Shown: positions 9,682-29,361 of the stretch, piece by piece | Layout of the letters: each line of letters opens with the position of its first letter | How positions within the stretch are numbered: the stretch's first letter is position 1 | Source of the DNA: an uncultured Candidatus Saccharibacteria bacterium | Lineage (GTDB): Bacteria > Patescibacteriota > Minisyncoccia > Phycocordibacterales > CAYZPE01 | NCBI GenBank assembly: GCA_964480575.1 | Contig: CAYZPE010000001.1 | Coordinates: forward strand, 1-40,371 | Direction: 5' to 3' | Length of the DNA stretch: 40,371 bases | Notes under the pieces: model-generated | What the model was told of the DNA's origin: nothing | Database searches by the model: none | What the model saw: only the letters and a program-made list of their open reading frames with translations | Position numbers and translations under genes: made by a program

Positions 9682-10548
9682 ATGAAAAAAATGTTTCAAG
9701 AAAAAACTAGTGGGGAACTCACTAAAAAGGTTGAGGATTGGTGGAACGCAAATCCTTTCACTTACCTTATGGATAATAAAGATATTCAAGCCGATTGGGC
9801 TTTTTTTAGAAATATTGATAGGAAGATAATTAAATGGATGCCATGGGCACAAAAAGGTTATCCTCTTCTTTCTTCTGTTGTAAACTACTCCTCTCTTAAG
9901 GGTAAAAAGGTGCTTGATATAGCTGTTGGCACTGGCTGGAGTACTGAGCAGTTTGTGCGTACAGGGGCAGAGGTGACCGCTATTGATCTAACTTCTCAGG
10001 CAGTTGAGCTTACCAAAAAAAGACTTGAACTATATGGACTTCATGCTAAGGCTGTACAAGTTTCTGATGCACAAAATCTCCCATTTAAAGATGAAAGTTT
10101 TGACTATGTTCTAGCTTTTGGTTGTTTAATGCATATGCCTAATACGGAAAAAGCAATTAATGAAATATATCGAGTTCTCAAAACAGGAGGCAAGTCGAGC
10201 GCCATGATGTACTACAAACACTCACTCCACTTCTGGTACTACATTTTTTTTGGAAAAGGAATACTAAAGGGCAAGCTTTTTAAGTATTCTCCACAAGAAT
10301 TATCTAATCGTTATACAGACGGTGCATATGAAGAAGGGAATCAACTTACTAAATTTTATAGTAAAAAAGAAATTAAAAAAATGTTTGGGAAGTTTTCTAA
10401 AATTAATGTACGCATTTTTGACGATACAACATGTATAGATCATTTCCCGCACAGGTATTTGCCACTAGGAAGTTTTCTTCCGACACGACTTAAGAAATGG
10501 CTTACCACAAAAGTTGGCCAAACACTTTGGATTGATGTTCAGAAGTAA
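9682..10548 (+). CDS. Class I SAM-dependent methyltransferase
   Basis: Motif I VLDIAVGTGWST. FDYVLAFGCLMHMPN...VLKTGGK (Methyltransf_11-like). Confidence 0.8.
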   Translation: MKKMFQEKTSGELTKKVEDWWNANPFTYLMDNKDIQADWAFFRNIDRKIIKWMPWAQKGYPLLSSVVNYSSLKGKKVLDIAVGTGWSTEQFVRTGAEVTAIDLTSQAVELTKKRLELYGLHAKAVQVSDAQNLPFKDESFDYVLAFGCLMHMPNTEKAINEIYRVLKTGGKSSAMMYYKHSLHFWYYIFFGKGILKGKLFKYSPQELSNRYTDGAYEEGNQLTKFYSKKEIKKMFGKFSKINVRIFDDTTCIDHFPHRYLPLGSFLPTRLKKWLTTKVGQTLWIDVQK

Positions 10549-14004: not shown

Positions 14005-14922
14005 ATGCAACAGAAAATAAAAAAAACAATTAGAACACTCAGGAATAAAAGGCATTTTATATGGAATAACATTCTGACTAAAATTGCTTACGGACTAGGT
14101 CGCTTCTCGTATCCTTCTTCAAAAAAAATAGGAACACGAAAAATATCAACGATCGGTATTGTGAGGATAGATAATGGAAAAAATCAGCTTGGGATAAATC
14201 TTCCACCTAATTACAAAGATCTTATTGAAAAAATTTCAAGTGAGGCGGGGAGGAGGATGCTCTTAACAGAAAATTGTCAGTTGCGTTCAGCAGATGAAGA
14301 GCTTTCAAAAAAACTTTCTGATGTAAAAAAAATGCCAGTTAAGGTTGAAGATATTGCTGAGATTAAACAAGGTCTTGTTGGGCACATACGTCTTAAAAAA
14401 ACTCTTGATTTGCCAGGTCTTCAAGAATTAGTCTCTTTTATTATTCCTCAAATTGAACAATCTATATATCATTCTCCAGTTATCGTTGAAAAAGCAATTG
14501 TATATAGAAACCTTGCTTCGAAGCTTCCAGAATATTCATCGGTTCTCTGGCACTCAGACAATCACTTTGAGGGTGTTATCAAGATAATGATTTACTTAAG
14601 TGATGTTACTGAAACACAAGCTCCTTTTGAGTACCTTCGACACAAATTAACAGGTGAAGCAATTCATATCAAACCACAAATGCCTCAGTTTTATCCTAAT
14701 GGTCGTGTCCCGGCTTCGGTTATTGAAAAGTATAAAGATGAAGGGTATGAGGCTGTGAAAATAGTTGGAAAAAAAGGAACAATGTTTGTTTTTGACGATA
14801 AAACAATACATAAAGGTAATTATGCTCAAAATGGACATCGAGATGCAATGGTTTTGCAACTCAAACCTGCAATTAAAGCACCCTCTGTCTACATAAATTC
14901 TCGCTGGACCTCTTCATCTTAG
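14005..14922 (+). CDS. PhyH-like Fe(II)/2-oxoglutarate dioxygenase, paralog 1
   Basis: HxD in LWHSDNH, distal His in KTIHKGN, then Arg in GHRDAMVL. Collinear with the ORF at 19301-20215. Confidence 0.65.
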   Translation: MQQKIKKTIRTLRNKRHFIWNNILTKIAYGLGRFSYPSSKKIGTRKISTIGIVRIDNGKNQLGINLPPNYKDLIEKISSEAGRRMLLTENCQLRSADEELSKKLSDVKKMPVKVEDIAEIKQGLVGHIRLKKTLDLPGLQELVSFIIPQIEQSIYHSPVIVEKAIVYRNLASKLPEYSSVLWHSDNHFEGVIKIMIYLSDVTETQAPFEYLRHKLTGEAIHIKPQMPQFYPNGRVPASVIEKYKDEGYEAVKIVGKKGTMFVFDDKTIHKGNYAQNGHRDAMVLQLKPAIKAPSVYINSRWTSSS

Positions 14923-14996
14923 CTTTTCTACTCAACATAAGGTACTGTCTTTAAAGTAGACATTTTGACAGCATTGTTGTAAATTAATTCCATTCT

Positions 14997-15788
14997 ATGA
15001 ATAAAAGGCTAACAATTAAGGAATTAAGGGCTTTGTGCCAAGCTACTGCGCCAAATCCTGCCCGAGAGAGCTTTGCAGGTCGTTTTTCACGTATTTTTTC
15101 GATATACGTTACGCGAATACTTATCCCTACAACAATCAGTCCTAATCAAATTACAGTACTAAGTGTTGTAACTTTTTTTATTGGAATCTACTTTTTCTTT
15201 CTCGGGACCGTTGTGATGAATGTTGTAGGTGCTCTGGTTATCTTTTTTTCAATTGTTCTTGATGGTTGTGATGGTGAGGTTGCGCGTTATAAAAAAAACG
15301 GAAGTGTTGCAGGAACTTTATATGTTGAACCGGTAAGTCATGATATTCAATATGGTTTAATGTTTCCTCTCCTTGGACTCGCTCTGTACCTTAATGGGGC
15401 TCCGCAATATTTTATTATTCTTGGATTTCTAGCAAGTCTTTTCAAGCTCTGGTATCGTTTGATTGAGGCTCGATTTTGGACTCTTGCAAATAATAATGCA
15501 ACAGAACAAAAGATTGATGAAATAAAAAAAGAGTATAAAGAAAAATCTTTACCTGTTCGATTTGTATATTGGATCAATAAAGAAATTTTTAGCTCAACTG
15601 GAGTCTTCCTCGTGATTTTAATTTTGGGAATCCTCAATCGGATAGACATATATCTCTGGATATATGTTGTTGGTTATGGTCTGTTCTTCTCTGCTCTTTT
15701 TACAAAGCACATCATAAAGATATCTAGTAAAAAAAAAGCCAACATATTAAAATCCCACGAATTGCAGTTGTCCTTGCGGCAGGTATAG
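14997..15788 (+). CDS. CDP-alcohol phosphatidyltransferase family membrane protein
   Basis: SPNQITVLS..., core motif LDGCDGEVARYKKNGSVAGTLYVEPVSHD (DGxxAR...G...D-type, distal part divergent), multiple hydrophobic helices. The last ~17 aa after the A9 run (ANILKSHELQLSLRQV) overlap the next reading frame and look non-native. Confidence 0.8.
   Translation: MNKRLTIKELRALCQATAPNPARESFAGRFSRIFSIYVTRILIPTTISPNQITVLSVVTFFIGIYFFFLGTVVMNVVGALVIFFSIVLDGCDGEVARYKKNGSVAGTLYVEPVSHDIQYGLMFPLLGLALYLNGAPQYFIILGFLASLFKLWYRLIEARFWTLANNNATEQKIDEIKKEYKEKSLPVRFVYWINKEIFSSTGVFLVILILGILNRIDIYLWIYVVGYGLFFSALFTKHIIKISSKKKANILKSHELQLSLRQV
15729..15737 (+). other. A9 homopolymer at the junction of the phosphotransferase frame and the nucleotidyltransferase-cyclase frame (candidate slippery site or homopolymer miscall)
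   Basis: agt aaa aaa aaa gcc in the upstream frame. A -1 shift, or one extra A, reads straight into the downstream frame (...ISSKKKSQHIKIPRIAVVLAAG...). Confidence 0.9.
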
Positions 15789-17629
15789 GAGCTCGTCTTG
15801 ATCGACCAGATAGCCCAAAACCACTCATAAAGGTTGGTAACAAGTCTTTAATAATAAGAACTATCGAACAGCTTCAAGAAGTTGGGGTTTCTCACATACA
15901 TGTGGTCGTAGGTCATAGAGGTGAAGAGGTTAAGAAAGATTTAACTGGTAATCCGGCCGTAACAGCAACTCTTGAATATATCTATGAAGAGGATGTAACT
16001 AAGGCGGGTATAATAAAAACTCTCAATCAATTATCACTCACACTGGCAGAGCCCTTTTTTTTGGCAATGGCTGATCTTGTGATTGAGAAAAATCCTTACC
16101 TTATATTTAATGAGATTCCTTTTTTGGAGTCGTCTCTGTACACTCTTGTTGATAGAAGAAAGGAGACTAATGTAGCGAGTGGGGCACTTTCTCAGGTTCA
16201 TATTTCAAGAGATGGAACCGTCACTGCTGTTGGAAGATCTCTTTCGGAATACAGCGCTCTTGAGGTCGGTATTTACTACATTACGATCAAGGCTCTTAGA
16301 AATTTGTTACATTTACAAGGAGGAAGTAGTTTACCAAGCTTGGATGGTTTACTTAATATGCTTGCAGGAATAAAGTTGCTCCGTCCAGTTTTTCTTGAGG
16401 AAGGAGAATGGTTTGATGTGAATACGCCAGCAACACATATTAAAGCCGAACTATTTGCTCGAGCAAAGAATTCTTCAGTATTTCTTCCAGCTCGAAAAAA
16501 GAATTTAAAGCTACCAGCACTTGCAACCTCTTTTACTCGCCCAAAGAAACTTTCAACAGATATTTTTATTGAAGCAGGTCTTCTGGATCGCTTAGCTGAG
16601 ACAAAAATAATTCCAGATTCTTATGCTGATGCGGTGCACTTTCTTCTGACAGATACGGTCGTTGATCTTCTTCATGCAGAGAGAGTTCTTCGAGGACTCC
16701 ATGTTTCTGGATATAATGTCCAAAAAATAGTTGTTCCCGCCGGAGAGATCTCAAAGAGTTTATCAGAATATTCCCGCATTGCTGATGAGGTCTTGAGTTT
16801 AGGTATGGATAAAAGATCCATTCTGATCAGTCTTGGTGGGGGTGTTGTAAATAATATCGCAGGCTTTCTTGCTTCAACTCTCTATCGGGGAATTGGTCTC
16901 ATTCACATACCCACAACCACCATGGCTCAGGTTGATGCAGCAATAGACTTTAAGCAAGGAATAAATTCAAGTAAAGGTAAAAATTTATTTGGTAGTTATT
17001 ACCCCGCAACATCTATCATTATTGATCCTCAGGTTTTATCAACTCTGGATGAAAGAAATCTTTTTAATGGCATAAGTGAATCAATCAAGCATGCTCTAAC
17101 TCAAGATTCTGATTTCCTCGAATATCTTCTAAAGGAGAGAAATAATATCAAGGACGTTAAGGTGCTTGAGTGTATTGTACGAAAAACAATCAATCTCAAG
17201 GTCCCACTTTTGAATGGTGATGTAAATAATGATTTTAACGAGATGATCCCGCAGTATGGTCACAGTATTGGTCATGCGGTTGAAAGGCTCTCCTCATATG
17301 ATTTACTTCATGGTGAAGCGATTGCAATAGGGATGTGTCTTTCAGCTGAAATAGCGCTCCTTCTTGGAATTTGTACCCAAGAAGTTGTGGATCTTCATTA
17401 TCGAGCATTTGAAATCTACGATCTTCCAGTTACAGTACCTTCCTATATGAGTTCTGTCGATGTGGTATCTGCAATACGTTTTGATAAGCATCACGTTGAA
17501 AAGCCTTTCATGGCTTTTGTTAAAGATGTTGGAATAATGTTTAGCGAAAATGGCCAGTACGGCATACCAGTTGATTACGGTATTCTTAAACGAGCTATAG
17601 AAATAAACAAGAAAAGACATGAAAAATAA
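15731..17629 (+). CDS. Fusion protein: LicC/IPCT-like nucleotidyltransferase domain plus a 3-dehydroquinate-synthase-like sugar phosphate cyclase domain (start codon unresolved)
   Basis: The frame opens at 15731 after the stops at 15725 and 15728. N-terminal IAVVLAAGIGARLDRPDSPKPL...WFDVNTP. C-terminal GGGVVNNIAGF, IHIPTTTMAQVDAAIDFKQGIN, GKNLFGSYYP, SESIKHAL, GHSIGHAVE and HGEAIAIGM are collinear with DHQS. There is no ATG/GTG/TTG in frame before GTG 15902, and that start would delete the NTP-binding glycine loop. Confidence 0.8.
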   Translation, partial: KKSQHIKIPRIAVVLAAGIGARLDRPDSPKPLIKVGNKSLIIRTIEQLQEVGVSHIHVVVGHRGEEVKKDLTGNPAVTATLEYIYEEDVTKAGIIKTLNQLSLTLAEPFFLAMADLVIEKNPYLIFNEIPFLESSLYTLVDRRKETNVASGALSQVHISRDGTVTAVGRSLSEYSALEVGIYYITIKALRNLLHLQGGSSLPSLDGLLNMLAGIKLLRPVFLEEGEWFDVNTPATHIKAELFARAKNSSVFLPARKKNLKLPALATSFTRPKKLSTDIFIEAGLLDRLAETKIIPDSYADAVHFLLTDTVVDLLHAERVLRGLHVSGYNVQKIVVPAGEISKSLSEYSRIADEVLSLGMDKRSILISLGGGVVNNIAGFLASTLYRGIGLIHIPTTTMAQVDAAIDFKQGINSSKGKNLFGSYYPATSIIIDPQVLSTLDERNLFNGISESIKHALTQDSDFLEYLLKERNNIKDVKVLECIVRKTINLKVPLLNGDVNNDFNEMIPQYGHSIGHAVERLSSYDLLHGEAIAIGMCLSAEIALLLGICTQEVVDLHYRAFEIYDLPVTVPSYMSSVDVVSAIRFDKHHVEKPFMAFVKDVGIMFSENGQYGIPVDYGILKRAIEINKKRHEK

Positions 17630-18377
17630 GGGTAAGAAAAAGATACTTGTAACAGGTGCAAGTCGTGGTATAGGAAAAGCTCTTGTTAAAAAGTTACTCG
17701 AGGATGGTTTTGATATTATTGCTATTGCTCGCAATAAAAAAGGACTTATTGCACTAGAAAAAGAATACGCAAAATTTGGTACTGTGAAGGGAATTACTCT
17801 CGACCTATCTAATGAAGAGGCTGTTAAAAAATTTACACAAAAATGGAAAGAGTCGCTGTACGGAATTATTAATAATGCGGGAATTTGTAAGACTGAGCGC
17901 TTAGATGAAAATAATGATGTGTGGGAGGAAGTAATTAAAACCAATCTTGCAGGGCCGTATTTTCTTACTAAAGGACTTTTGGCGCATATTGAGTCTCCAG
18001 GGCGGATTGTAAATATTTCCTCACAATTAGGTCGTGAAGGTAGGGCTAGTTATAGTGCGTACTGCGCCTCTAAGTTTGGCATCATTGGCCTTACTAAATG
18101 TTGGGCAAAGGAGTTGGGGGTTAAAAATATTACGGTGAATGCAATTTGCCCAGGTTGGGTAGATACTGAAATGTCGCGCATTGATTTGGCACGAATTGCA
18201 AAAGAGAAAGGAAAGTCGATCGAAGATTTTTATAAAGAAATTTGTGCTCCTCTAGAGCTTAAGCGTTTTACCACACCAAAAGAGGTCGCTGAGCTTGTTT
18301 CTTTTCTAGTCTCAGAGAAGTCCTCTGGTATTACTGGTCGTGACATGCTTTTGAATACAGTTTGGAATCAAGAATAA
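17619..18377 (+). CDS. Short-chain dehydrogenase/reductase (SDR)
   Basis: VTGASRGIGKAL, NNAG, SSQLG...YSAYCASK (catalytic S/YxxxK). Overlaps the upstream gene by 11 nt. Confidence 0.9.
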   Translation: MKNKGKKKILVTGASRGIGKALVKKLLEDGFDIIAIARNKKGLIALEKEYAKFGTVKGITLDLSNEEAVKKFTQKWKESLYGIINNAGICKTERLDENNDVWEEVIKTNLAGPYFLTKGLLAHIESPGRIVNISSQLGREGRASYSAYCASKFGIIGLTKCWAKELGVKNITVNAICPGWVDTEMSRIDLARIAKEKGKSIEDFYKEICAPLELKRFTTPKEVAELVSFLVSEKSSGITGRDMLLNTVWNQE

Positions 18378-19279
18378 TGACACAAGTAGATATTAAAAAA
18401 CATCTTTTACATACATACGGTCTCAAGGTTAAACGTCTTGTGGTTATGAGGGGTGGTGTAATGAATGATAATTATAAAATATCATCAGACAAAGGAGAAT
18501 TTATTTTTCGTATATATAATAGAACCTCTTTTGAAACTGTACACTTTGAATTCGATGTTTTGAGTCATTTGGAATCTTTAAATTTTTTTTCTCCTCACAT
18601 ACATATTTCTCTGTCTGGTAGAGGGGTGGTTCTTTTTAAAAAAAAGCCATCAGTTTTATATACCTACATAAAAGGTGAATCTATTAAAAAAATTACAAAA
18701 AACTTACTTGGAAAGATTGGCAGAGCCATTGGTAGATTTCACACTCTCGTTGCCGATTTTGATATAAAAGTTCATAAAGAAAGTTGGGAACCTCATTTTC
18801 TAATACGTTTAGTTGAGGTGGGCGAAGATCTATTTACACGCAAAGGATTTCCTGACGCAAAGGATCTTTTTGATTTTCTGAGAGAAGAAATGGGAAAATT
18901 TAGTTTTCCAAACTTACCTTCAGGGGTTACTCATCAGGATATTAAACCAGAGAATATACTAGTGCACAAAGGTCAAATAACAGGCTTTATAGACTTCGAT
19001 AATAGTTTTTACGGTGCATATGTTCACGATATTACAACAACTGCAATTTGGACCTGTTTTACTAAATATAAGCTCGACAAAGTAAAATTAAACGCTCTTC
19101 TTTGTGGTTATGAAAAGGAACGTAAACTTACATCTCTTGAAAAGAAAGTTTTTAATGACGCTTTAAAATGGAGATTGCTTCGAGAAATGTTTATAGGCCC
19201 TTATGTAACTGTAAAAAAAACACCAAAAACTCAGGAACGATTAACATATTTCAAAAAGCTCTATAGTAATTTTTTGTAA
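18377..19279 (+). CDS. APH/choline-kinase-fold small-molecule kinase
   Basis: THQDIKPENILV (HxDxxxxN) and FIDFDNS (DFD). ATG 18377 shares one nt with the upstream TAA (TAATG). The track start at 18362 is a TTG. Confidence 0.75.
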   Translation: MTQVDIKKHLLHTYGLKVKRLVVMRGGVMNDNYKISSDKGEFIFRIYNRTSFETVHFEFDVLSHLESLNFFSPHIHISLSGRGVVLFKKKPSVLYTYIKGESIKKITKNLLGKIGRAIGRFHTLVADFDIKVHKESWEPHFLIRLVEVGEDLFTRKGFPDAKDLFDFLREEMGKFSFPNLPSGVTHQDIKPENILVHKGQITGFIDFDNSFYGAYVHDITTTAIWTCFTKYKLDKVKLNALLCGYEKERKLTSLEKKVFNDALKWRLLREMFIGPYVTVKKTPKTQERLTYFKKLYSNFL

Positions 19280-19300
19280 ATCTTATAGTAGAATACTGTT

Positions 19301-20215
19301 ATGTTTGAAAAGCTTAAACATCTGTATAAGTTGTATGTAAAAAGACCTATTGCGAGTATTGAATTTACGAGGCCTGTTTGGCTTTTCTTGAATAGAAAAG
19401 CCCAGTCTCTTTTCGATAAGAATAAACCTGAATTAAATCAGGTTCAAAAAAGGGTGGTTACTGAATTAGAAAAAGATGGTATTTCCATTACTCATTTTGA
19501 TGAATTGTTTAAAGATAAGCCAGAGATTTACTTAGACATGTTGAGGAATTTAGATAGTCTAGTTTCCAATGCAAAACAAGACCCTAAAAAAGATCATTTT
19601 AAAGCAATGTGGGACACAAGGTCTTTTTACCTAGATCCAAATAGTAGTTTTGTAAAATTTGCTCTTTCTCCACAAGTTATTGATGTCGCAAACACATATA
19701 TGAAAATGTGGACAAGACTCCTGCTTGCTAATGGTTATGTTTCAGAAGTTGTTCCACAGACAGAAACTCGGATTAAAACTCAAAATTGGCATAGAGATGC
19801 TCATGATGTTCAACTTGTTTCTGTTTTTATTTATTTAACAGATGTTAATTCACCTCGTGACGGGGCTTTTTCATATGTGAGAGGGAGCCATCCACTTGGT
19901 AAATTTAAATCACTTTTTAAACAACCAAAACCTCATTCACTTAAAAAATTCCCCAAAGAAGATGAAGTTAGTAAAAGCATACAGGAAGAAGATGTTGTCT
20001 GGTGTTTAGGAAAGAAAGGAACGATTATTTTTAGTGATGGAACAGGGATTCATCGAGGTGGATACTGCACCGAAAACAAAAGAGTAATGATTCTTACTGC
20101 CTATACTTCAGATCACCGTTTTACTAAAACACTTAGACTATCGTATCCAGAAAATAAAGAAGTTTTTAAATTAAAATTATCTCCTCAGGCTAGGTACACT
20201 GCCGGTCTGAGTTAG
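19301..20215 (+). CDS. PhyH-like Fe(II)/2-oxoglutarate dioxygenase, paralog 2
   Basis: NWHRDAHD (HxD), GTGIHRGG (distal His), NKRVMIL (Arg). Collinear with 14005-14922. Confidence 0.65.
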   Translation: MFEKLKHLYKLYVKRPIASIEFTRPVWLFLNRKAQSLFDKNKPELNQVQKRVVTELEKDGISITHFDELFKDKPEIYLDMLRNLDSLVSNAKQDPKKDHFKAMWDTRSFYLDPNSSFVKFALSPQVIDVANTYMKMWTRLLLANGYVSEVVPQTETRIKTQNWHRDAHDVQLVSVFIYLTDVNSPRDGAFSYVRGSHPLGKFKSLFKQPKPHSLKKFPKEDEVSKSIQEEDVVWCLGKKGTIIFSDGTGIHRGGYCTENKRVMILTAYTSDHRFTKTLRLSYPENKEVFKLKLSPQARYTAGLS

Positions 20216-20220
20216 TATCA

Positions 20221-20259
20221 CAGAACGTTTTTCTTGACATGTCATGTCAAAACGTTCTG
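20221..20259. terminator. Imperfect 39-nt palindrome: candidate terminator of the upstream genes and/or operator-promoter of the NUDIX cassette
   Basis: Outer arms CAGAACGTT (20221-20229) and AACGTTCTG (20251-20259). Inner arms TTGACATG (20234-20241) and CATGTCAA (20243-20250). TTGACA is present on both strands. Followed by T-rich ttctttg and a strong SD (GGGGAGG) before ATG 20280. Confidence 0.4.
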
Positions 20260-20279
20260 TTCTTTGAGGGGAGGTTTAT

Positions 20280-20819
20280 ATGACCGCAAAGTATTGCGAT
20301 TGGATTCCTGGTACATTTGGCCTGAAACATCCAGCAGTGCTCGTGACAGCTGATGCGCTCATTTATCAGGTTCTGGAAGGTGGTCGAATTCAGATTTTGA
20401 TCGGTACCAGAAAATCTCCCAGTCGATGGGAAGCTGGTCTTCGGATACTCACCTTTGGTGGCTTCGTTGATCCGAATGACGGGTCTATCTATGAGACCGT
20501 CAAGCGTGAAGTGATGCGCGAGGAACTCAGGGATATTGCTCTTGCTATCGACTTTGAAAGACCCTTTTTTACTGGTCCGTGCAAAGTCAGGCATCAGTGG
20601 CACAGTTATCAGCGATCGATTTCAAGCGGTGAACAGGTTCAGGATGTGCCGGTCGTCACGGCAAATTTTCTGGCACGCTATGTTGGCGGTGAGCTCAGAG
20701 ACAGTGATGAGGTCACCGCTCCTCACTGGGTTTATCTTGAAGATCTTGAAGGTGACTTTGCCTTCGATCATGCACTGGTGCTTGAGCACTTTCTGCCCCG
20801 TATTGTTTTTCAGGCGTAG
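20280..20819 (+). CDS. NUDIX-family hydrolase (divergent Nudix box), compositionally foreign
   Basis: LTFGGFVDPNDGSIYETVKREVMREEL resembles GX5EX7REUXEEXGU with a one-residue insertion and substitutions. Hand count gives 267 G+C in 540 nt (49%). Strong SD 6-7 nt upstream. Confidence 0.55.
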   Translation: MTAKYCDWIPGTFGLKHPAVLVTADALIYQVLEGGRIQILIGTRKSPSRWEAGLRILTFGGFVDPNDGSIYETVKREVMREELRDIALAIDFERPFFTGPCKVRHQWHSYQRSISSGEQVQDVPVVTANFLARYVGGELRDSDEVTAPHWVYLEDLEGDFAFDHALVLEHFLPRIVFQA

Positions 20820-20847
20820 ACAATGTGCGTATATACACATAAGTCAA

Positions 20848-20879
20848 AATCGTTGATGGCTACCATCAGCGATTTTTTT
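20848..20879 (+). terminator. Rho-independent terminator after the NUDIX gene
   Basis: 12-bp stem AATCGTTGATGG / CCATCAGCGATT (one G-U pair), 3-nt loop CTA, then a T run through 20879. Confidence 0.6.
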
Positions 20880-20901
20880 ATACTATGGTATAGTCTTTGC
20901 T

Positions 20902-21627
20902 ATGAGTAATAACTACCTGCAAGGTCTTATTTTAGCTGCAGGGATAGGTAAGAGATTGGGCAACCTTCAAGGTGTAATTTCAAAACCACTTCTCCCGGTT
21001 GCGGGAAAAACCCTCATTGAATATATGATGGGATTCTGTCGCTCTCTTGGGGTTATTGATCTGATTGTGGTCGGAGGTTTTAAATATGATGAGCTTGAAA
21101 AAGTTGTGCAAAAAGCAGACCCAGAAGCTGTATTAGCGAGAAATGATCGATTTGAACTTCAGAATATTTTAAGTTTTAAGGCAGGTTTAGATAAAGCAAC
21201 AGATGAGGATTTGTTTGTTTGTAATGCAGATTATATCTTTATGGATCATACAGCAGAGGCTGTGAAAGCTGACATGAATAAACTGTGTGTCTATGCAAGT
21301 TATGACATAGAAGGAGATGTTATTGATGTTATGAAGGTTAAGGTTACTGAAAAGGAAGACCTGATAGAAATGTCAAAACAATTAGTTGAGTTTGACTCTA
21401 TGTATACTGGTATGTTTTTTATTCCAAAGAAAGACATCTCAGTAGTAAGATCTGTTACAGATGAAATAATACAAAATACTGATCTAACCAAGGTAACAGT
21501 TGAATTACTTTTTAAGGCTCTCCTAGAAAAGGGTCATACTATTCGGGTAGCTGATGTCGGTAAGCCTGACTGGTTTGAAATAGACACACCTGAGGAATGG
21601 GAAATAGCAAAGAAAGCTCTTGAATAA
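20902..21627 (+). CDS. LicC/IPCT-like sugar- or alcohol-phosphate nucleotidyltransferase
   Basis: GLILAAGIGKRLG...SKPLLPV glycine-rich loop, FVCNADYIF, C-terminal DWFEIDTPEEW. Same architecture as the N-terminal domain of 15731-17629. Confidence 0.8.
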   Translation: MSNNYLQGLILAAGIGKRLGNLQGVISKPLLPVAGKTLIEYMMGFCRSLGVIDLIVVGGFKYDELEKVVQKADPEAVLARNDRFELQNILSFKAGLDKATDEDLFVCNADYIFMDHTAEAVKADMNKLCVYASYDIEGDVIDVMKVKVTEKEDLIEMSKQLVEFDSMYTGMFFIPKKDISVVRSVTDEIIQNTDLTKVTVELLFKALLEKGHTIRVADVGKPDWFEIDTPEEWEIAKKALE

Positions 21628-21630
21628 GAT

Positions 21631-22989
21631 ATGAACTTAAAGCGAAAAATAGCTGAAAGTGTTCTGTATGTGTCATTGGGAAATATTCTCATAAAGCTTT
21701 TTTCAATTGTCGGGTATGTTTTAATTCTCCGAAAACTCTCACTTCATGATTACGGCGTATTTACTCTTCTTGTTTCTTTTGTAGGCCCAGCTGCCGCTAT
21801 AGCTTTTTTTAGCTTTGATCGGATTTTTGTCAGTCAATTTTCAAAAGCTCGTGGACTTCAAAATATTGCTCGAATGAAGGGTTTGTTTAAAGAGTATTAC
21901 AGACTAGGAACAATCCTCATTGTGCTTATGTTTGCAATTGTTTACGGATTTCGTTTGCTATTTGGAAATTTTTACGAAGCTTACATATTTCAGTATATGT
22001 GGCCGATTTCACTCTTTATTTTTTCTCAACTGATGATGAATATGGTCTCAGTGTTTCTTGAAAGTAATGAAGAGTTTAAGAAGATTTCAACTATGGAAAT
22101 TTTTGAGTCATTTATGAGATCAATTCTTGTTATGGGTGCTTTTCTTACTCTTCCTTTCTCTGTAACTCTTGTGTTGCTTGTGTATACCCTAGCAAAATTT
22201 AGTGCTATTGCCTTAGGTATTTTGTCGTTTATTAAAATTGAACGCACTCTTTTCAAAAATGACACAGAACCGGAGAGAGGTGTTTTGTGGGGAATATTTA
22301 AGTCTTTTGGTAAGTGGGAAATTGGAAGTAATATTTTTGAGAAAATACTTCAGCCAGTCAAGCTTCTTTTGATGAGATTTTTCGTTGGTATTGAGGCAGT
22401 TGCGGTATATGATTTTGCCGGTAATGTATATGCGTTTATGTACAGCCTTTTCCCTGTTAAAAGAATTATTTTTCCTATCGTTTCAAGATTTAAAAATGAC
22501 AGAGAAAAAATCAATCTTATTATTGCTAAGGCACAAAAATACAGTTTTCTTATGTATGCGACTCTTTATGTTGCTGTTCTGCTCACGACTCCGTTTGTGT
22601 TAAAAATTGCTTTTCCTCAATACGCACAATATTCTTTTGTGATATTTCTTTTTGCCCTTCATTTTATTGTTGATATTTACAAACTTGGTCAGAGTTCGCT
22701 TCTTTATGCATATAACCAGCAAAAATTTATGTTTACTGCATTACCAGTCTTTCTTGTGATTCAAGTAACTTTTGATGTTCTGTTCATAAAACTTTTTGGA
22801 ATCATCGGCTCAGTTCTTTCCTGGCATCTCTATAGTTTGTGTAATGGTTTTATTGTAAATCGTCATTTGGCAAAAAAAGTTAAGTTTCATCAGACAACAA
22901 TACGTGAATTTATAAGCTTCGATGAATATGATAAAGTTGTTCTTTCTGGTATAACATCCCGAATTAGGTCATATCTGCCGAAGTTTTAA
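21631..22989 (+). CDS. wzx: Wzx-like oligosaccharide flippase (MOP superfamily)
   Basis: 452 aa and highly hydrophobic, with roughly 12-14 predicted helices. The N-terminus (SVLYVSLGNILIKLFSIVGYVLILRKLSLHDYGVF) is typical of the Polysacc_synt family. Confidence 0.7.
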   Translation: MNLKRKIAESVLYVSLGNILIKLFSIVGYVLILRKLSLHDYGVFTLLVSFVGPAAAIAFFSFDRIFVSQFSKARGLQNIARMKGLFKEYYRLGTILIVLMFAIVYGFRLLFGNFYEAYIFQYMWPISLFIFSQLMMNMVSVFLESNEEFKKISTMEIFESFMRSILVMGAFLTLPFSVTLVLLVYTLAKFSAIALGILSFIKIERTLFKNDTEPERGVLWGIFKSFGKWEIGSNIFEKILQPVKLLLMRFFVGIEAVAVYDFAGNVYAFMYSLFPVKRIIFPIVSRFKNDREKINLIIAKAQKYSFLMYATLYVAVLLTTPFVLKIAFPQYAQYSFVIFLFALHFIVDIYKLGQSSLLYAYNQQKFMFTALPVFLVIQVTFDVLFIKLFGIIGSVLSWHLYSLCNGFIVNRHLAKKVKFHQTTIREFISFDEYDKVVLSGITSRIRSYLPKF

Positions 22990-26444: not shown

Positions 26445-27209
26445 ATGGGAACAGTTGAAAATAAAACAGGAGCAATATACGGTAATCTTTTTAATGCGTA
26501 TTCTGAAAAACAATTTGATGAATCAGTTGAATTATTTTTTATGCGCCAGCAAAAATGGGGTATGGATCTTATGTGGTGGAAAGATAAGGTGTGTTTAGAT
26601 GCGGGCTGTGGCGGCGGGAGGTTTGTTGTCGCTATGGCAAAGCTTGGGGCAAAGATGGTGCATGGAATTGATATTAGTGTTGATGCTATTAATGCAGGTA
26701 AAGAGCGATCATTGATTCGCAAGCTCACTAGTACTAAATTTCAAGTAGCTTCAGTCCTCAAGCTTCCATTTCAAGACATTACCTTTGATTACGTAGTTTC
26801 AAGCGGTGTTATTCATCACACCCCAAACCCAAAACAAGCTTTTAATGAGCTGGTGAGAGTTCTTAAACCTGGAGGTAAGCTTTTTCTCTCTGTCTACGGT
26901 AGAGGAGGTTTGAAATGGTTTTTAAATGATTTATTTAGATATACCGTTTGCAAAATAATTCCATTTAAAGTTATGGAAAAGATATTTGCTTGGTGTGGTG
27001 TTCCAGCAAATAAAAGATATAACACGCTTGATAATCTGTATGTTCCGTATTGTTACCGCTATACCGAAAAAGAAATTCGCGAGTGGTTAATTACTGCGGG
27101 ATTTGAAAATCTTACACGGCTCAAGTTTGAAAGATATGATTATGAAAGCATTCTTTCCCGAATTATTCATGGAGAAGGTTGGATACAAATGTATGCGGAC
27201 AAAAAATAA
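26445..27209 (+). CDS. Class I SAM-dependent methyltransferase
   Basis: CLDAGCGGGRFVVAMAKLGA, FDYVVSSGVIHHTPNP, VLKPGGKLFLSVYG. Confidence 0.8.
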   Translation: MGTVENKTGAIYGNLFNAYSEKQFDESVELFFMRQQKWGMDLMWWKDKVCLDAGCGGGRFVVAMAKLGAKMVHGIDISVDAINAGKERSLIRKLTSTKFQVASVLKLPFQDITFDYVVSSGVIHHTPNPKQAFNELVRVLKPGGKLFLSVYGRGGLKWFLNDLFRYTVCKIIPFKVMEKIFAWCGVPANKRYNTLDNLYVPYCYRYTEKEIREWLITAGFENLTRLKFERYDYESILSRIIHGEGWIQMYADKK

Positions 27210-28605
27210 CTTAAAAACAGTATTTATTGCTATCTCTCGTGGTTTTATTGTTAGAAATATACTGAGGAGTGGGGTTTTAGATAAGCTTAAAGAGAAAAAT
27301 TACAAAATTGTGATTTTTTTTCCGTACGGTAAAGATGAAAATGAGAAGTTGGCATTAGTAAAAGAATTTTCTAATGAGAATGTAATAGTTGAATTTTTAC
27401 CTCCCGACACAGATCTTGATTTCAGAGGCATCAAAGGCTTCTTCTATCGCATATTTAAAAGTATTGCGCCATATTTAGTTTATTCTCATTCGACATGGAC
27501 ATATAGTCGCATTGGTAATATGCGAAAAATGAACCGTAGTATCTTCTGGTCTTATCTTGAAAAATATACTTACGGAGTACTTTCACATGTTCACTTTCTG
27601 AAACATATTGCGAGATTTATTGAAATGAGAATTTTTTACGAGCCAAAATATGCTCAATATTTTAAAAAGTATAACCCAAACGTTGTGTTTGCTGCCTCTG
27701 TTGTTTCAAAGCAAGATATCCAATTTATGAAAGATGCAAAACGTTTTGGTGTTAAGACTGTAAGTATGCCGAAGGGGTGGGATAATATTTCTAAAATGCT
27801 CTATCGTGTTGCTCCTGATGTTCTTGTTGTTCAAAATGAAATTATGAAAGATGATGCAATTCATATACAGAGGTTGCACGAATCTCATGTTAAGGTGTGT
27901 GGCTTTCCTCAGTTTGATTGGTACAGACATCCAGAGATTCTCATGAGTCGAGAAAACCTCTTTAGTCTTTTGGGTCTGGATTCAAAAAAAAGACTCTTGT
28001 TTTTTGGTTCAGAAGGTGTGTGGGCACCGAACGATGACACGATTGCTGCAACCCTCAGTAGTCTTGTAGCAGGTTCACAAGGGCTAGTAAAAGAATGTGC
28101 GGTTCTTATACGTCCACATTTTTCTGATGTACACAATAAAAGGTTTGATAAATTCAAGGGATTACCAAATGTTAGAGTTGATGAAAATTTTACTCTCTCT
28201 AATTATTTTAATGACAACTGGAACCCGAGTTTGGAAGAAACTAAATTGTTTGTAAACTGCTTGTATCATTCAGATGTAATGATTACTGTGGCATCAACCC
28301 TTGTTCTTGATGCTGTAGCGTACGATAAGCCTTCGATAGGAATTGCTTACGGAGTCTTGTATAATCCCAAGACGGGCAAGGATGTCTCAGAGGAGCTTTA
28401 TGAAACTGATCATTTTCACGCCGTAATGGTTACTGGAGCGGTTGACCTTGTACGTACTGAAAAAGAACTTGTTGAATCGATTAATAATGCCCTAGTAAAT
28501 CCTGAAAAGAAAAAAAACGAGAGGGAAAATTTGCTTAAAAATTTGTGTTACAGGGTTGATGGAAATTCATCAAAACGGATTGTGGATGTTATAGACTCAG
28601 TTTGA
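27193..28605 (+). CDS. GT-B-fold transferase, TagF / capsule-phosphotransferase-like, paralog 1 (donor unknown)
   Basis: Collinear paralog of 29362-30759 (ISRG..RN.L, K.WDN.SK, G.PQFD.Y, FFGSEG, RPH[FY], LDAVA[YF]DKP). The C-terminal half resembles my recollection of TagF-type CDP-glycerol glycerophosphotransferases. I place the start at ATG 27193 (MRTKNNLKTVFIAISRG), overlapping the upstream gene by 17 nt. Confidence 0.45.
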   Translation: MRTKNNLKTVFIAISRGFIVRNILRSGVLDKLKEKNYKIVIFFPYGKDENEKLALVKEFSNENVIVEFLPPDTDLDFRGIKGFFYRIFKSIAPYLVYSHSTWTYSRIGNMRKMNRSIFWSYLEKYTYGVLSHVHFLKHIARFIEMRIFYEPKYAQYFKKYNPNVVFAASVVSKQDIQFMKDAKRFGVKTVSMPKGWDNISKMLYRVAPDVLVVQNEIMKDDAIHIQRLHESHVKVCGFPQFDWYRHPEILMSRENLFSLLGLDSKKRLLFFGSEGVWAPNDDTIAATLSSLVAGSQGLVKECAVLIRPHFSDVHNKRFDKFKGLPNVRVDENFTLSNYFNDNWNPSLEETKLFVNCLYHSDVMITVASTLVLDAVAYDKPSIGIAYGVLYNPKTGKDVSEELYETDHFHAVMVTGAVDLVRTEKELVESINNALVNPEKKKNERENLLKNLCYRVDGNSSKRIVDVIDSV

Positions 28606-28609
28606 AAAC

Positions 28610-29302
28610 ATGGGATTAGGCTACTTTACTCCAAAAGAAATACTAGAAAATAAAGACCTCATTAAGGACGCTCTTCTTAATGAGTCAAGTTATTTTATAC
28701 GCTCAGGCATCTTAGGTAGTCTTCTTGTGAAGAATATTCCTCATGAAAGTCAGATTTTAGAAATAGGTTCTGGTGGTGGACAATTTGGAAAATTTTTGTT
28801 GGATAGGGGATATAAAAATCTTACTCTTTCAGATATTGATGATTATATTATGCCTGAGGTTAAGGCACGAACTTCTTTTTTTATGGCAGATATTTCGTTT
28901 ACGAAACTACCTCTACATGACAGTTTGATTGATCTCGTTCTGGCAATAACGATCTTTGAGCATTTGGAAAATCCTTTTTTTGCGATTCAGGAAATTACAC
29001 GGGTACTTAGAAAGAATGGAAAACTTATTATAGCGATCCCTTATATTTTTTCACTCAGATCTAAGTTCAAGTTTTTCTTAAGAGGTGATCTGAGTGGATA
29101 TACTGAAACAAATAATCATGTATCACTTTTTACGCGAGCGCTTTTTAAAAAAGTTTTTCTAAAACATTATATAATTAAGGAAACTTATTATAGTCCAGGT
29201 TTTATAAAAGTTTTAGGTAAAAAAATTAAATTCCCTCTATTTCTCGGGTTTTTAAACAAATACTTTGGTAATGATGTTATGTATATTCTTGAGAAGAAAT
29301 AA
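28610..29302 (+). CDS. Class I SAM-dependent methyltransferase
   Basis: ILEIGSGGGQFGKFL, LVLAITIFEHLENP, VLRKNGKLIIAIP. Confidence 0.75.
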   Translation: MGLGYFTPKEILENKDLIKDALLNESSYFIRSGILGSLLVKNIPHESQILEIGSGGGQFGKFLLDRGYKNLTLSDIDDYIMPEVKARTSFFMADISFTKLPLHDSLIDLVLAITIFEHLENPFFAIQEITRVLRKNGKLIIAIPYIFSLRSKFKFFLRGDLSGYTETNNHVSLFTRALFKKVFLKHYIIKETYYSPGFIKVLGKKIKFPLFLGFLNKYFGNDVMYILEKK

Positions 29303-29306
29303 CTCC

Positions 29307-29335
29307 TTGCGAGCTCCTCTTGCCAGGGCTATACT
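29307..29335 (+). promoter_or_regulatory. Candidate sigma70-like promoter (TTGCGA-17 nt-TATACT)
   Basis: TTGCGA at 29307-29312, a 17-nt spacer, TATACT at 29330-29335, 26 nt upstream of ATG 29362, in one of the few real intergenic gaps. Pattern match only. Confidence 0.3.
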
Positions 29336-29361
29336 ATCTTTCTGCTTTGGAAGACTAATAC

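Follow-up and report, generated by a model that had tools for sequence, protein, structure and literature searches.

The region spanning positions 14005 to 21627 of the window (the whole 40,371-nucleotide stretch of DNA analyzed here) appears, on balance, to be an operon-like cassette that makes and uses a nucleotide-activated cyclitol phosphate (Table 1). At its center lies a gene that fuses an IPCT/LicC-like nucleotidyltransferase (NT) to a sugar-phosphate cyclase of the 3-dehydroquinate synthase (DHQS) fold. In the pathway we propose, the NAD+/metal-dependent cyclase domain would convert a hexose-6-phosphate (glucose-6-phosphate or an epimer) to a deoxy-inosose with release of phosphate, and the FabG-like SDR would form a cyclitol of the deoxy-inositol type by reducing its ring ketone. 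The APH-fold kinase would then rephosphorylate this cyclitol, and the IPCT-like N-terminal domain would couple it with an NTP, probably CTP, to yield a CDP-cyclitol. Finally, as suggested by gene adjacency and the analogy with IPCT/DIPPS, the membrane phosphotransferase might move the cyclitol phosphate to a hydroxyl acceptor, for which a glycan, a lipid and another cyclitol phosphate are candidates, in the setting of a Wzx/Wzy-type surface-glycan locus. A second nucleotidyltransferase (NT2), a Nudix protein and two PhyH-like proteins would be accessory, with possible roles in making a second CDP-alcohol, in hydrolysis or proofreading of the NDP intermediate, and in ring hydroxylation.

Table 1. 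Features of the cassette and its surroundings, in coordinates of the window
Feature	Position	Strand	Evidence or remark
PhyH-like 2OG/Fe(II) dioxygenase 1	14005..14922	+	Pfam PhyH 26.8 bits, cut-off 22; HxD in WHSDNH
DIPPS/AF2299-type membrane CDP-alcohol phosphotransferase	14997..15788	+	Pfam CDP-OH_P_transf 28.4 bits, cut-off 22
A9 run in 3' end of phosphotransferase gene	15729..15737	+	Sequence
NT–cyclase ORF as first read	15731-17629	+	IPCT/LicC-like nucleotidyltransferase fused to complete DHQS-fold domain
ATATTA, mutated form of ancestral ATATGA stop/start overlap	15744..15749	+	Comparison with relatives
IPCT/LicC-like NT domain of fusion	15746..16450	+	NTP_transf_3; start uncertain (either ATT 15746 or passage from the frame upstream)
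Sugar-phosphate-cyclase (DHQS-fold) domain of fusion	16559..17629	+	DHQ_synthase and DHQS_C; DOIS-like active-site signature
Classical FabG-like SDR ketoreductase	17619..18377	+	adh_short 167 bits
APH-fold small-molecule kinase, proposed cyclitol kinase	18377..19279	+	APH 96 bits (ORF 18362-19279)
PhyH-like dioxygenase 2	19301..20215	+	PhyH 31.6 bits, cut-off 22; HxD in WHRDAHD
Divergent Nudix-fold protein	20280..20819	+	Pfam NUDIX matches of homologs
Second IPCT/LicC-like nucleotidyltransferase (NT2)	20902..21627	+	NTP_transf_3 51 bits
Wzx-type flippase, context gene	21631..22989	+	Polysacc_synt 36.5 bits; MOP flippase
TagF/BFO_1060-like GT-B protein	27103-28605	+	Glyphos_transf 27.9 and 21.3 bits for the two of the pair
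TagF/BFO_1060-like GT-B protein	29362-30759	+	Second of the pair within 27103..30759

The NT–cyclase fusion and its reading frame

The preliminary description of this region had proposed the fusion from the sequence motifs of a single ORF. All of the motifs it quoted are found in the translation, and Pfam recovered both domains, with 42.5 bits for NTP_transf_3 at residues 12-117, 118 bits for DHQ_synthase and 88.6 bits for DHQS_C. [quoted passage not shown] Only the IPCT structures 2xme and 4mnd are collinear with the entire NT domain, whose GxGxR motif, Lys25, Asp110 and WxD..TP do not vary among 15 fusions.

Position 15731 is just the first codon past two in-frame stops, and the frame that begins there has no ATG, GTG or TTG ahead of the GTG at 15902. 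The public gene call (P0001, 575 aa) starts at this GTG, so the GxGxRL motif is lost from it. In all 14 other relatives examined, an ATG is found 4–9 codons ahead of the AV(I/V)LAAG motif; in the L002 counterpart (...AAA ATA TGA) it overlaps the stop of the preceding gene, while the window and L081, a 76%-identical relative, have ATT in its place. By this comparison, one G-to-T change in the lineage of the window, at position 15748, removed both the stop of the upstream gene (TGA to TTA) and the start codon of the fusion (ATG to ATT). The A9 run just upstream, which L081 shares along with the frame layout, might be where a -1 ribosomal shift joins the phosphotransferase gene to the NT–cyclase frame; alternatively, one A inserted in the mRNA might bring about the same joining.

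The phosphotransferase itself, in which the previously noted DGCDGEVAR is located, has AF2299 (4o6m, 2.5e-12) and IPCT/DIPPS (4mnd) as its best PDB matches. Its best NCBIfam matches are archaetidylinositol-phosphate synthase, DIPPS and PIP synthase, none of which reaches its cut-off, and its closest relatives all act on inositol phosphate or CDP-alcohols. The family is marked by the motif DGxDGExxR...YxEPVSHDxQY, in which the family-specific EPVSHD stands in place of the missing canonical Gx3Dx3D half. The C-termini of its homologs fall between about three residues before and three after the KISSKKK of the window protein; hence, the functional enzyme probably ends near 15737-15749, with the last ~13–16 codons being read-through.

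The active site of the cyclase

The PDB matches of the cyclase domain comprise DHQS (155 bits, 2.8e-44), DOIS (150 bits, 8e-43), ValA (114 bits, 7e-32) and DDGS (78 bits, 1e-20). Every metal, NAD-chemistry and phosphate residue of DHQS is kept in it, the retained set being R130, D146, K152, N162, E194, K197, K250, H271, H275, H287 and K356 in A. nidulans DHQS numbering, and the residues for phosphate binding, phosphate elimination and aldol chemistry are invariant in 65 family members. As anticipated in the preliminary description, the Arg and Asn that contact DAHP are substituted: DHQS 6lk2 indeed has RALLNLGH where the window has EMIPQYGH, so that the DAHP-carboxylate-binding Arg264 is replaced by Glu and Asn268 by Gln. 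Position 264 is Gly or Ala, once Ser, in the other members, and Arg in none of the 65. Five sites match the DOIS BtrC rather than DHQS, namely [F/H/L/I]-K-Q (G-K-T in DHQS), Y-Y (F-Y/H in DHQS), Tyr269, the lack of Arg at 264, and GGGxxxN (GGGxxxD in DHQS); the position of the DOIS Glu243 is occupied by Gln. The conserved catalytic residues and this DOIS-like pocket are the basis for the proposed first step.

The same evidence bears on the possibility that the cyclase uses sedoheptulose-7-phosphate, in the manner of EEVS/EVS, to form a C7-cyclitol, with reduction, phosphorylation and nucleotidylation of this product to follow along the lines of the valienol branch. EVS enzymes are DHQS-like in sequence but take sedoheptulose-7-phosphate (PMC5133447); therefore, similarity to DHQS or DOIS leaves the substrate unfixed. 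Further, the order of cyclase, kinase and NT is identical to that of the validamycin and acarbose C7N pathways (PMC9200736), and ValA clearly matches in structure (TM 0.86). We nevertheless regard a C7 product as unlikely: ValA and DDGS score well under DOIS and DHQS, the five discriminating sites agree with a hexose-6-phosphate enzyme, and no pseudoglycosyltransferase or C7N-type tailoring genes were seen in the window. A hexose-6-phosphate remains our favored substrate.

Phyletic patterns and gene neighborhoods

Our literature search, like the preliminary description, came upon no account of an NT–cyclase fusion or its pathway. However, the fusion is no one-off: it occurs in more than 100 protein clusters from Patescibacteria, Myxococcota and Bradymonadia, making up the majority of the 120 best clusters and 52 of 70 genome loci, with its homologs labeled "3-dehydroquinate synthase" or "NTP transferase domain-containing protein" in the databases. 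The gene set is widespread yet unstudied.

The SDR gene overlaps the 3' end of the fusion by 11 nt, and its product is closest to FabG and ketoreductases in the PDB. Four clusters (P0005, P0008, P0013 and P0019) are NT–cyclase–SDR triple fusions, and in 57 of the 70 family loci the cyclase has an SDR of the same subfamily no more than 10 kb away. Of the 52 fused loci, 38 have a kinase at most 10 kb from the fusion, with the APH fold in Patescibacteria-type loci and PfkB in 35 Myxococcota/Bradymonadia loci. The APH kinase of the window most likely starts at ATG 18377 (300 aa, like its relatives) rather than TTG 18362; its nearest named family, type II homoserine kinase, scores below the cut-off. 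It belongs to a small subfamily with just 46 relatives found, at least 14 of them on contigs equal in length to one with an NT–cyclase match. The triple fusions, the switch of the adjacent kinase from APH to PfkB between phyla, and this apparent sharing of contigs all support the order of cyclase, SDR, kinase and NT put forward earlier, and we propose that the APH kinase is dedicated to the cassette, with a cyclitol as its substrate.

The neighborhood, with its genes overlapping at junctions, is conserved in many relatives. The order of CDP-alcohol phosphotransferase, NT–cyclase, SDR, APH and NT2 is retained in L001, L002, L083/84 and L086, and, as far as the APH kinase, where the contigs end, in L004 and L081. 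Three Patescibacteria-type loci (L009, L021 and L042) have the phosphotransferase, NT–cyclase, APH and NT2 with no SDR within 10 kb, while a Pfam scan of the flanking ORFs of L069, which has full flanks, found no kinase and sequence clustering found no APH or PfkB homolog in L047. In proteobacterial relatives, O-antigen-like loci contain the cyclase together with the SDR but neither a kinase nor an NT; therefore, the cyclitol may be usable in another way.

Pfam upheld all the genes listed in the preliminary description, which had missed the Nudix gene. Homologs of the latter adjoin the NT–cyclase in L003, L006 and L041 (1e-24 to 1e-31), with Pfam NUDIX scores of 28.8 bits in L003 and 21.3 bits in L041. 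The gene has a GC fraction of 0.44 against about 0.35, and the window has no clear Shine-Dalgarno site other than the GGAGG 5' of it. NT2, with 4jd0 (1.3e-13), LicC 1jyk and IPCT 2xme as best PDB matches, is like the fusion NT in being collinear with inositol-1-phosphate cytidylyltransferase, and in relatives its gene directly follows that of the kinase (L001, L002, L005, L008, L009, L021, L042, L083 and L086). The cassette hence has two active-looking NTs, where the proposed pathway requires one. Both PhyH scores are just over the cut-off. Homologs of dioxygenase 1, for which no PDB relative was found by sequence, lie just 5' of the phosphotransferase gene in L002, L004 and L081, and those of dioxygenase 2 occur only in L081/L082 and L013. 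From this confinement to close relatives, the two are accessory rather than core components, and their suggested role in ring tailoring is a guess.

Downstream in the window, a methyltransferase gene separates two genes for TagF/BFO_1060-like GT-B proteins, which match the BFO_1060 family at about 62 bits, below the cut-off. Homologs of these accompany the cassette in L001, L002, L008, L021, L041, L083/84 and L086, and their donor could be CDP-alcohols or CMP-nonulosonate. More generally, all Patescibacteria-type cassettes are found among glycosyltransferases, Wzx, a Wzy/ligase-like protein, methyltransferases and nonulosonate genes. This placement amid surface-glycan genes, in the window and every such relative, counts against the idea that two cyclitol phosphates are joined into a soluble osmolyte, a phosphodiester analogous to di-myo-inositol phosphate, with no surface-glycan decoration. 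The NT domains and phosphotransferase are indeed nearest to IPCT and DIPPS/AF2299, and the three-gene module of Myxococcota and Bradymonadia, among which many are marine, sits outside glycan loci; but no phosphotransferase homolog was found near the Myxococcota loci, and we deem an osmolyte slightly less likely still than a C7 product.

Placement of the cyclase family

In a neighbor-joining tree, the cyclase family is monophyletic and outside DHQS in 99 of 100 bootstraps. This separation is with respect to DHQS, the tree having been built without the EEVS, EVS, DDGS, aminoDHQS and EboD sequences.

The combination of a DHQS-superfamily enzyme, a kinase and a LicC-like NT resembles the CDP-alditol pathways of capsule loci. 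Together with weak Fe-ADH_2 matches, this likeness could be read as indicating an NAD-dependent dehydrogenase or phospholyase acting on an acyclic polyol phosphate, after the pattern of glycerol-1-phosphate dehydrogenase or of CDP-2-glycerol-type pathways, with an ordinary CDP-alditol as the cassette product. We consider this improbable, given that the two DHQS models score 118 and 89 bits against 16.5 for Fe-ADH_2 and 24.8 for G1PDH, and that the phosphate-elimination and aldol residues of DHQS are invariant in the 65 members. The same scores led us to reject the glycerol-1-phosphate dehydrogenase/Fe-ADH branch, which the preliminary description had named as a placement that would count against its reading. 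An ordinary AroB of the shikimate pathway, fused to an NT by chance, is least credible of all: though aroB is the best-scoring named family in NCBIfam and homologs bear the DHQS label, the score of 253.8 bits falls short of the equivalog cut-off (305), both Arg264 and Asn268 have given way to other residues across a family that forms its own clade, no aro genes occur among the scanned ORFs of the window, and an SDR and a kinase accompany the cyclase at the above frequencies. On these sequence features the fusion cyclase is not AroB, in line with the initial doubt about a shikimate role.

Relationship to known systems

Parts of the proposed cyclitol phosphate pathway are mirrored in several known systems. 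In di-myo-inositol-phosphate synthesis, IPCT and DIPPS are often fused (PDB 2xme, 4mnd); comparably, an IPCT-like NT here adjoins a DIPPS/AF2299-like transferase, the partners are fusion-prone, and a cyclitol phosphate would be activated as a CDP-alcohol and then transferred. However, the window NT is fused to the cyclase and not the transferase, the transferase motif is variant, and all scores are far below equivalog cut-offs. Moreover, myo-inositol-phosphate synthase keeps the phosphate, whereas a DHQS-fold cyclase loses it, and therefore a kinase would be required here. BtrC (PDB 2d2x, 2gru), the DOIS of 2-deoxystreptamine aminoglycosides, has the same fold and catalytic set, sharing I/L/F/H-K-Q, Y-Y-P, Tyr269, GGGxxxN and a non-Arg 264 with the window cyclase; yet the latter is 35% identical to it, belongs to a separate clade and has Gln for its Glu243. 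Aminotransferase and aminoglycoside genes are absent here, and the proposed route is via SDR, kinase and NT rather than transamination.

The validamycin/acarbose systems (ValA/AcbC, cyclitol kinases, ValB/AcbR) likewise proceed from a cyclase through redox tailoring and a kinase to an NT that yields an NDP-C7-cyclitol. In contrast to the window, their cyclases are of the EEVS type, use sedoheptulose-7-phosphate and show lower similarity to the window cyclase, their NTs are sugar-1-phosphate (GlgC-like) enzymes, and their products are secondary metabolites joined by pseudoglycosyltransferases, outside surface-glycan loci with CDP-alcohol phosphotransferases. EboD, compared by description, is a recent case of a "mis-annotated DHQS" that turned out to be a hexose-6-phosphate cyclase forming a new C6 cyclitol; its partners include a UbiA prenyltransferase and a TatD-like hydrolase, and it lacks an NT, SDR or kinase module. 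Lastly, in the CDP-glycerol, CDP-ribitol and CDP-2-glycerol pathways of teichoic acids and capsules, a cytidylyltransferase similarly activates a small alcohol phosphate for transfer onto a cell-surface polymer; there, the alcohol is acyclic and dehydrogenase-derived, whereas in the window it would come from a carbocycle-forming cyclase.

Gene content of the locus

The window (40,371 bases, ~36% GC) carries nearly all of its genes on the + strand. Besides the features tabulated below, it codes for five GT4 proteins, two UDP-GlcNAc 2-epimerases, two AsnB-like enzymes and ~8 methyltransferases. The preliminary description had read one long frame as a nucleotidyltransferase (NT) domain joined to a domain of the DHQS fold. 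Every motif that it quoted was found in the translation of this frame, and Pfam recovered NTP_transf_3 together with both halves of 3-dehydroquinate synthase. All the neighboring genes it had named were likewise confirmed by Pfam, but it had overlooked a divergent Nudix-fold gene (orf179).

Features of the locus, with the evidence or setting of each
Feature	Position	Strand	Evidence or setting
PKD + lamin-tail-domain protein	950-2353		5' edge of glycan locus
PhyH dioxygenase	14005-14922		Pfam, weak yet above threshold
CDP-alcohol phosphotransferase	14997-15788		Pfam PF01066
NT-cyclase fusion	15731-17629	+	Pfam: NTP_transf_3 N-terminal; DHQ_synthase (118.1 bits) and DHQS_C (88.6 bits) C-terminal
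Classical SDR	17619-18377		Pfam
APH-fold kinase	18362/18377-19279		Pfam
PhyH dioxygenase	19301-20215		Pfam, weak yet above threshold
Divergent Nudix-fold gene (orf179)	20280-20819		Homologs elsewhere reach Pfam NUDIX threshold
Second NTP_transf_3 protein (NT2)	20902-21627		Pfam
Wzx flippase	21631-22989		Pfam
TagF/BFO_1060-like GT-B protein, first	27103-28605
TagF/BFO_1060-like GT-B protein, second	29362-30759
NeuB	30743-31888		Nonulosonate set
NeuC-like epimerase	31926-33098		Nonulosonate set
CMP-sugar synthetase	33103-33813		Nonulosonate set
Wzy/O-antigen-ligase-like protein with TPR repeats	34875-37040

The protein with PKD and lamin-tail domains is presumably secreted or surface-located. 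Shine-Dalgarno-like sequences are missing upstream of nearly every gene of the window (34 gene starts), and many genes overlap, by 1-17 nt; together, these features suggest that translation in this organism is coupled or does not depend on SD sequences.

Affinities of the cyclase domain

Both Pfam domains, which exceed their gathering scores, the fold and the metal- and phosphate-binding residues place the C-terminal domain of the fusion in the sugar phosphate cyclase superfamily, and cyclase activity is predicted for it on this basis. We aligned the active sites of 65 cyclase domains of its family (the NT-cyclase proteins and their unfused relatives) with 10 bona fide DHQS and two DOIS, namely the hexose-6-phosphate cyclase BtrC (PDB 2d2x) and a Marinicrinis homolog (L080). 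The metal ligands E194, H271 and H287 (A. nidulans DHQS numbering) are kept in the window and in 65/65 members of the family. Also kept are K152, N162, H275, K356 and R130 (phosphate-binding), as well as K197, K250 and D146, with K356Q in one locus (L060) as the sole exception to the conserved catalytic set among the 65.

Five sites are DOIS-like rather than DHQS-like in the alignment to BtrC and the column table: x-K-Q versus G-K-T, Y-Y(-P) versus F-Y/H, Tyr269, a non-Arg residue at 264, and GGGxxxN versus GGGxxxD. While these pocket residues match, two lines of evidence speak against membership in DOIS. First, the position of BtrC Glu243 (Asn268 of DHQS), which is Glu in both BtrC and L080, is Gln in the window and in 63/65 members, and Met in the other two. 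Second, the DOIS pair forms a branch separate from the family in 100/100 bootstraps.

The NCBIfam aroB model (TIGR01357) scores the domain at 253.8 bits, below its equivalog cut-off of 305, and no other curated NCBIfam family claims it. In DHQS, Arg264 and Asn268 contact DAHP, with Arg264 binding its carboxylate. Arg264 occurs in 0/65 family members versus 10/10 of the DHQS sequences compared; the window has Glu here, and other members Gly or Ala, with Ser in one. The earlier reading that the Arg and Asn of AroB are substituted is thus borne out, by Glu and Gln, respectively. The family is moreover monophyletic and apart from the 10 DHQS sequences in 99/100 bootstraps, instead of clustering inside AroB. 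Taken together, the sequence evidence indicates that the cyclase domain is not AroB. The glycerol-1-phosphate dehydrogenase/Fe-ADH branch, raised earlier as a further possibility, can be dismissed, as its models score the domain at <=25 bits.

Of the phylogeny proposed in the preliminary description, the comparison with DHQS and DOIS has been made and the family stands apart from both; our neighbor-joining tree (100 bootstraps) covers only the three groups DHQS, DOIS and the family, and therefore does not show the sister group of the family. By identity, the window cyclase is about equidistant from DHQS (37%) and DOIS (35%), and its similarity to the sedoheptulose-7-phosphate cyclases is lower (ValA, 114 bits; DDGS, 78 bits). 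A structure prediction, likewise proposed earlier, was obtained with good confidence for the whole fusion with AlphaFold (pLDDT 85). In Foldseek searches with this model, DHQS, DOIS and ValA all match the C-terminal domain at TM 0.86-0.89, a match that confirms the predicted DHQS fold and does not separate the three.

The nucleotidyltransferase domain and the phosphotransferase

In the fused NT, G13, G15 and R17 (GxGxR), the catalytic K25, the Mg-binding D110, and W222, D224, T227 and P228 (the C-terminal WxD..TP) are invariant across 15 fusions. Residues 7-228 align to IPCT structures (2xme and 4mnd), and collinearity over the full length is seen only with inositol-1-phosphate cytidylyltransferases. 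By motifs and collinearity, the domain can be assigned to the IPCT/LicC type (NTP_transf_3), below the level of the IPCT equivalog (NF041135, cut-off 580), on which the fused NT scores 54.9 bits and NT2 69.2 bits.

The phosphotransferase scores 28.4 bits on its Pfam model (cut-off 22) and is most closely related to AF2299, DIPPS, and the archaetidylinositol-phosphate and PIP synthases. Of the signature, it has the D-x2-D-G-x2-A-R half, and 12 independent homologs share its DGCDGEVAR. In the subfamily formed by the window protein and these homologs, an invariant YxEPVSHDxQY stands in place of the canonical Gx3Dx3D half, with acidic residues present at a different spacing; because of this replacement, the chemistry may differ in detail.

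Recurrence of the fusion and its neighborhood

Protein searches returned more than 100 clusters of NT-cyclase proteins of 600-650 aa and 38-76% identity, with Parcubacteria/Patescibacteria, Bradymonas, Lujinxingia, Persicimonas and Myxococcales among the named sources. In four of the clusters (P0005; P0008, L086 10001-12727; P0013; P0019; 720-910 aa), the protein continues C-terminally into the SDR, its third domain. P0008 ends, in its SDR part, with the same ...GITGRDMLLNTVWNQE that closes the separate SDR of the window. No in-frame phosphotransferase-NT-cyclase fusion was found among the best 120 protein matches or in 80 loci, and the search for the APH kinase fused to NT2 or the cyclase found only single-domain proteins.

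A genome scan with one genome per species yielded 149 relatives. Among the best 80, which were analysed, 70 belong to the family, and in 52 of these 70 loci the NT is fused to the cyclase. A kinase gene adjoins the fusion in 38 of the 52 fused loci, the exceptions being mostly contig ends. The APH kinase subfamily itself is small, with 46 relatives, of which at least 14 are apparently on contigs with NT-cyclase matches.

We compared the window proteins with ORFs from the six-frame translation of every locus, and grouped the flanking ones by clustering. The neighborhood, whose recurrence the preliminary description had wished to see surveyed, is found across several phyla in three arrangements. 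In the first, the Patescibacteria type, a cassette in the order phosphotransferase, NT-cyclase, SDR, APH kinase, NT2 is kept in L001, L002, L083/84 and L086. This order is kept as far as the APH kinase, where the contigs end, in L004 and L081/82; in L005 all genes are present and rearranged. L009, L021 and L042 keep the order without the SDR (none within 10 kb), and the ketone may be handled differently in these three. Genes of the Patescibacteria-type cassettes overlap at their junctions, and the cassettes lie amid GT4 glycosyltransferases, methyltransferases, AsnB-like amidotransferases and Wzx. L009, L021 and L042 thereby make up a second type of Patescibacteria locus, whose cyclases read L-K-Q or F-K-Q and in which position 264 is occupied by Ala, Gly or Ser.

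In the second arrangement, found in Myxococcota and Bradymonadia, the NT-cyclase and SDR are kept, and in 35 loci a kinase of the PfkB family takes the third place; no CDP-alcohol phosphotransferase was found near the NT-cyclase units of these loci. In Bradymonas sediminis (L085 10001-13688), NT-cyclase, SDR and PfkB make up a tight unit that is not part of a glycan locus. Such units occur in cultured predatory and marine bacteria, again outside glycan loci.

In the third, an unfused cyclase (44-50% identical) and an SDR of the same subfamily are found in O-antigen-like loci with a Wzm/Wzt ABC transporter, many GT4 genes, and RgpF, DUF5672 or UDP-GlcNAc 2-epimerase. The unfused cyclases group with the window-type fused enzymes in 98/100 bootstraps. 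Annotated examples are Rhodopseudomonas palustris BisB18 (L048, NC_007925 4649225-4670346) and Paraburkholderia atlantica (L039), and the same flanking gene clusters surround the cyclase in Burkholderia diffusa, Trinickia symbiotica (L046), Sulfurovum and others; further loci are L036, L044, L045, L050, L054, L055 and L057. The proteobacterial loci of this kind contain neither the kinase nor the NT.

The junction of the phosphotransferase and fusion genes

The NT-cyclase frame opens at 15731, straight after TAG TAA, and has no ATG, GTG or TTG before 15902; the intervening 57 codons encode the conserved NT motif. An ATG lies 4-9 codons ahead of this motif in 14/14 other relatives examined. In relatives, the phosphotransferase gene runs into the start of the fusion gene, as in L002 (about 9985-10000), where the two share a classic ATATGA stop/start overlap. 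In its stretch 15725-15790, the window has ATATTA in place of this overlap, with G-to-T at 15748. Comparison of the sequences indicates that this single change abolished the phosphotransferase stop and the fusion ATG together, and the lost stop would explain why the phosphotransferase ends in a tail of 16 residues that its homologs do not share.

The same change, with an A9 run 9 nt upstream, is present in an independently assembled relative of 76% identity (L081, 9410-9520). As this relative shares both the A9 run and the frames, a sequencing error at the run is ruled out, and the arrangement appears to have persisted under selection. Translation may begin at ATT 15746, or the NT-cyclase frame may be entered at A9, by a -1 ribosomal shift or by transcriptional slippage that inserts one A into the mRNA; entry at A9 by either means would give a three-part phosphotransferase-NT-cyclase protein. 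The missing Shine-Dalgarno sequence is uninformative here, since nearly all genes of the window are without one. Public gene calls of the fusion, among them the 575-aa call P0001, begin at a GTG or ATG inside the gene, which cuts the NT domain short.

Accessory genes

The Nudix gene has a GC content of 0.44, compared to ~0.35 in its neighbors, and the only clear Shine-Dalgarno motif of the window (GGAGG), which suggests that it was acquired separately. In L003, L006 and L041, homologs of it adjoin the NT-cyclase gene; the NUDIX gene adjoining the phosphotransferase gene of L009 has no detectable homology to orf179. PDB sequence searches with both PhyH proteins and the Nudix-like ORF returned nothing usable. 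The PhyH genes recur in close relatives only, so a role for them in ring tailoring is conjecture.

The two TagF/BFO_1060-like proteins could act on CDP-alcohols or on CMP-nonulosonates. Their Glyphos_transf scores are 27.9 and 21.3 bits (cut-off 22.1), and in at least seven loci the cyclitol cassette is accompanied by homologs of the two. However, the case for them as users of a CDP-cyclitol is weakened by the best NCBIfam match of both, the BFO_1060 glycosyltransferase family (~62 bits, below its cut-off), and by the nonulosonate genes that they adjoin.

A proposed cyclitol-phosphate pathway

DHQS-type cyclases expel the phosphate of their substrate, so a kinase must act before the product can be activated with a nucleotide, and the locus does encode one. 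We accordingly propose a scheme in which the cyclase domain would turn hexose-6-phosphate into a deoxy-inosose, the SDR, which resembles FabG-type ketoreductases, would reduce the ketone, and the APH kinase (PfkB in Myxococcota) would phosphorylate the cyclitol. The fused IPCT-like NT would then make CDP-cyclitol, from which the membrane CDP-alcohol phosphotransferase would transfer cyclitol phosphate. With every chemical step predicted from sequence, we consider the five-step scheme as a whole slightly favored. The strongest evidence that cyclase, reductase, kinase and NT act in one pathway is their recurrence, along with the swapping of the kinase between unrelated folds and the fusion of the partners in varied combinations.

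Not everything fits: the SDR is absent in three loci, and kinase and NT are absent in the proteobacterial loci. NT2 also fits poorly, being a second NT where the scheme needs only one; it looks catalytically active from its sequence, is conserved, and in relatives always directly follows the kinase gene.

Carbocyclic LPS sugars include caryose and bradyrhizose. The unfused cyclase and SDR of the proteobacterial O-antigen loci may be the missing enzymes for such sugars; the genes for bradyrhizose have been reported as unknown (PMC4743980).

We further advance, tentatively and as somewhat doubtful, the wider proposal that a new cyclase clade, usually fused to an NT and sometimes to an SDR, supplies a CDP-activated, deoxy-inositol-type phosphate for bacterial cell-surface polymers. 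If true, this would be a "cyclitol-phosphate" counterpart, in candidate-phyla-radiation bacteria, of glycerol- and ribitol-phosphate decoration. CDP-cyclitol would be a new class of activated building block in bacterial glycobiology, and a first functional handle would be gained on a surface-polymer cassette that is conserved in Patescibacteria, a group still largely uncultured. Recognition of the clade would also set right the common but mistaken label "3-dehydroquinate synthase", which bears on the scoring of shikimate completeness in reduced genomes. The hypothesis would be open to direct test in cultured carriers, among them Bradymonas sediminis, Lujinxingia, Rhodopseudomonas palustris BisB18, Paraburkholderia atlantica and Trinickia symbiotica.

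Comparison with known systems

Known DHQS-fold cyclases belong to the shikimate pathway or to a few secondary-metabolite routes, i.e., those of aminoglycosides, C7N cyclitols, mycosporines and the ebo cluster. Our literature search found no description of the cassette, nor of a DHQS-fold cyclase in a surface-glycan locus, in agreement with what the preliminary description had supposed. It had also held the fusion to be undescribed: no paper on it was found, but in the databases it is a large family and not a one-off. A 2026 review of cyclitol biosynthesis lists DHQS, aminoDHQS, DOIS, EEVS, EVS, DDGS and EboD and does not mention an NT-cyclase fusion. The enzyme families and the logic of a kinase followed by an NT are already known, whereas their combination, the cyclase clade and its cell-envelope setting are new.
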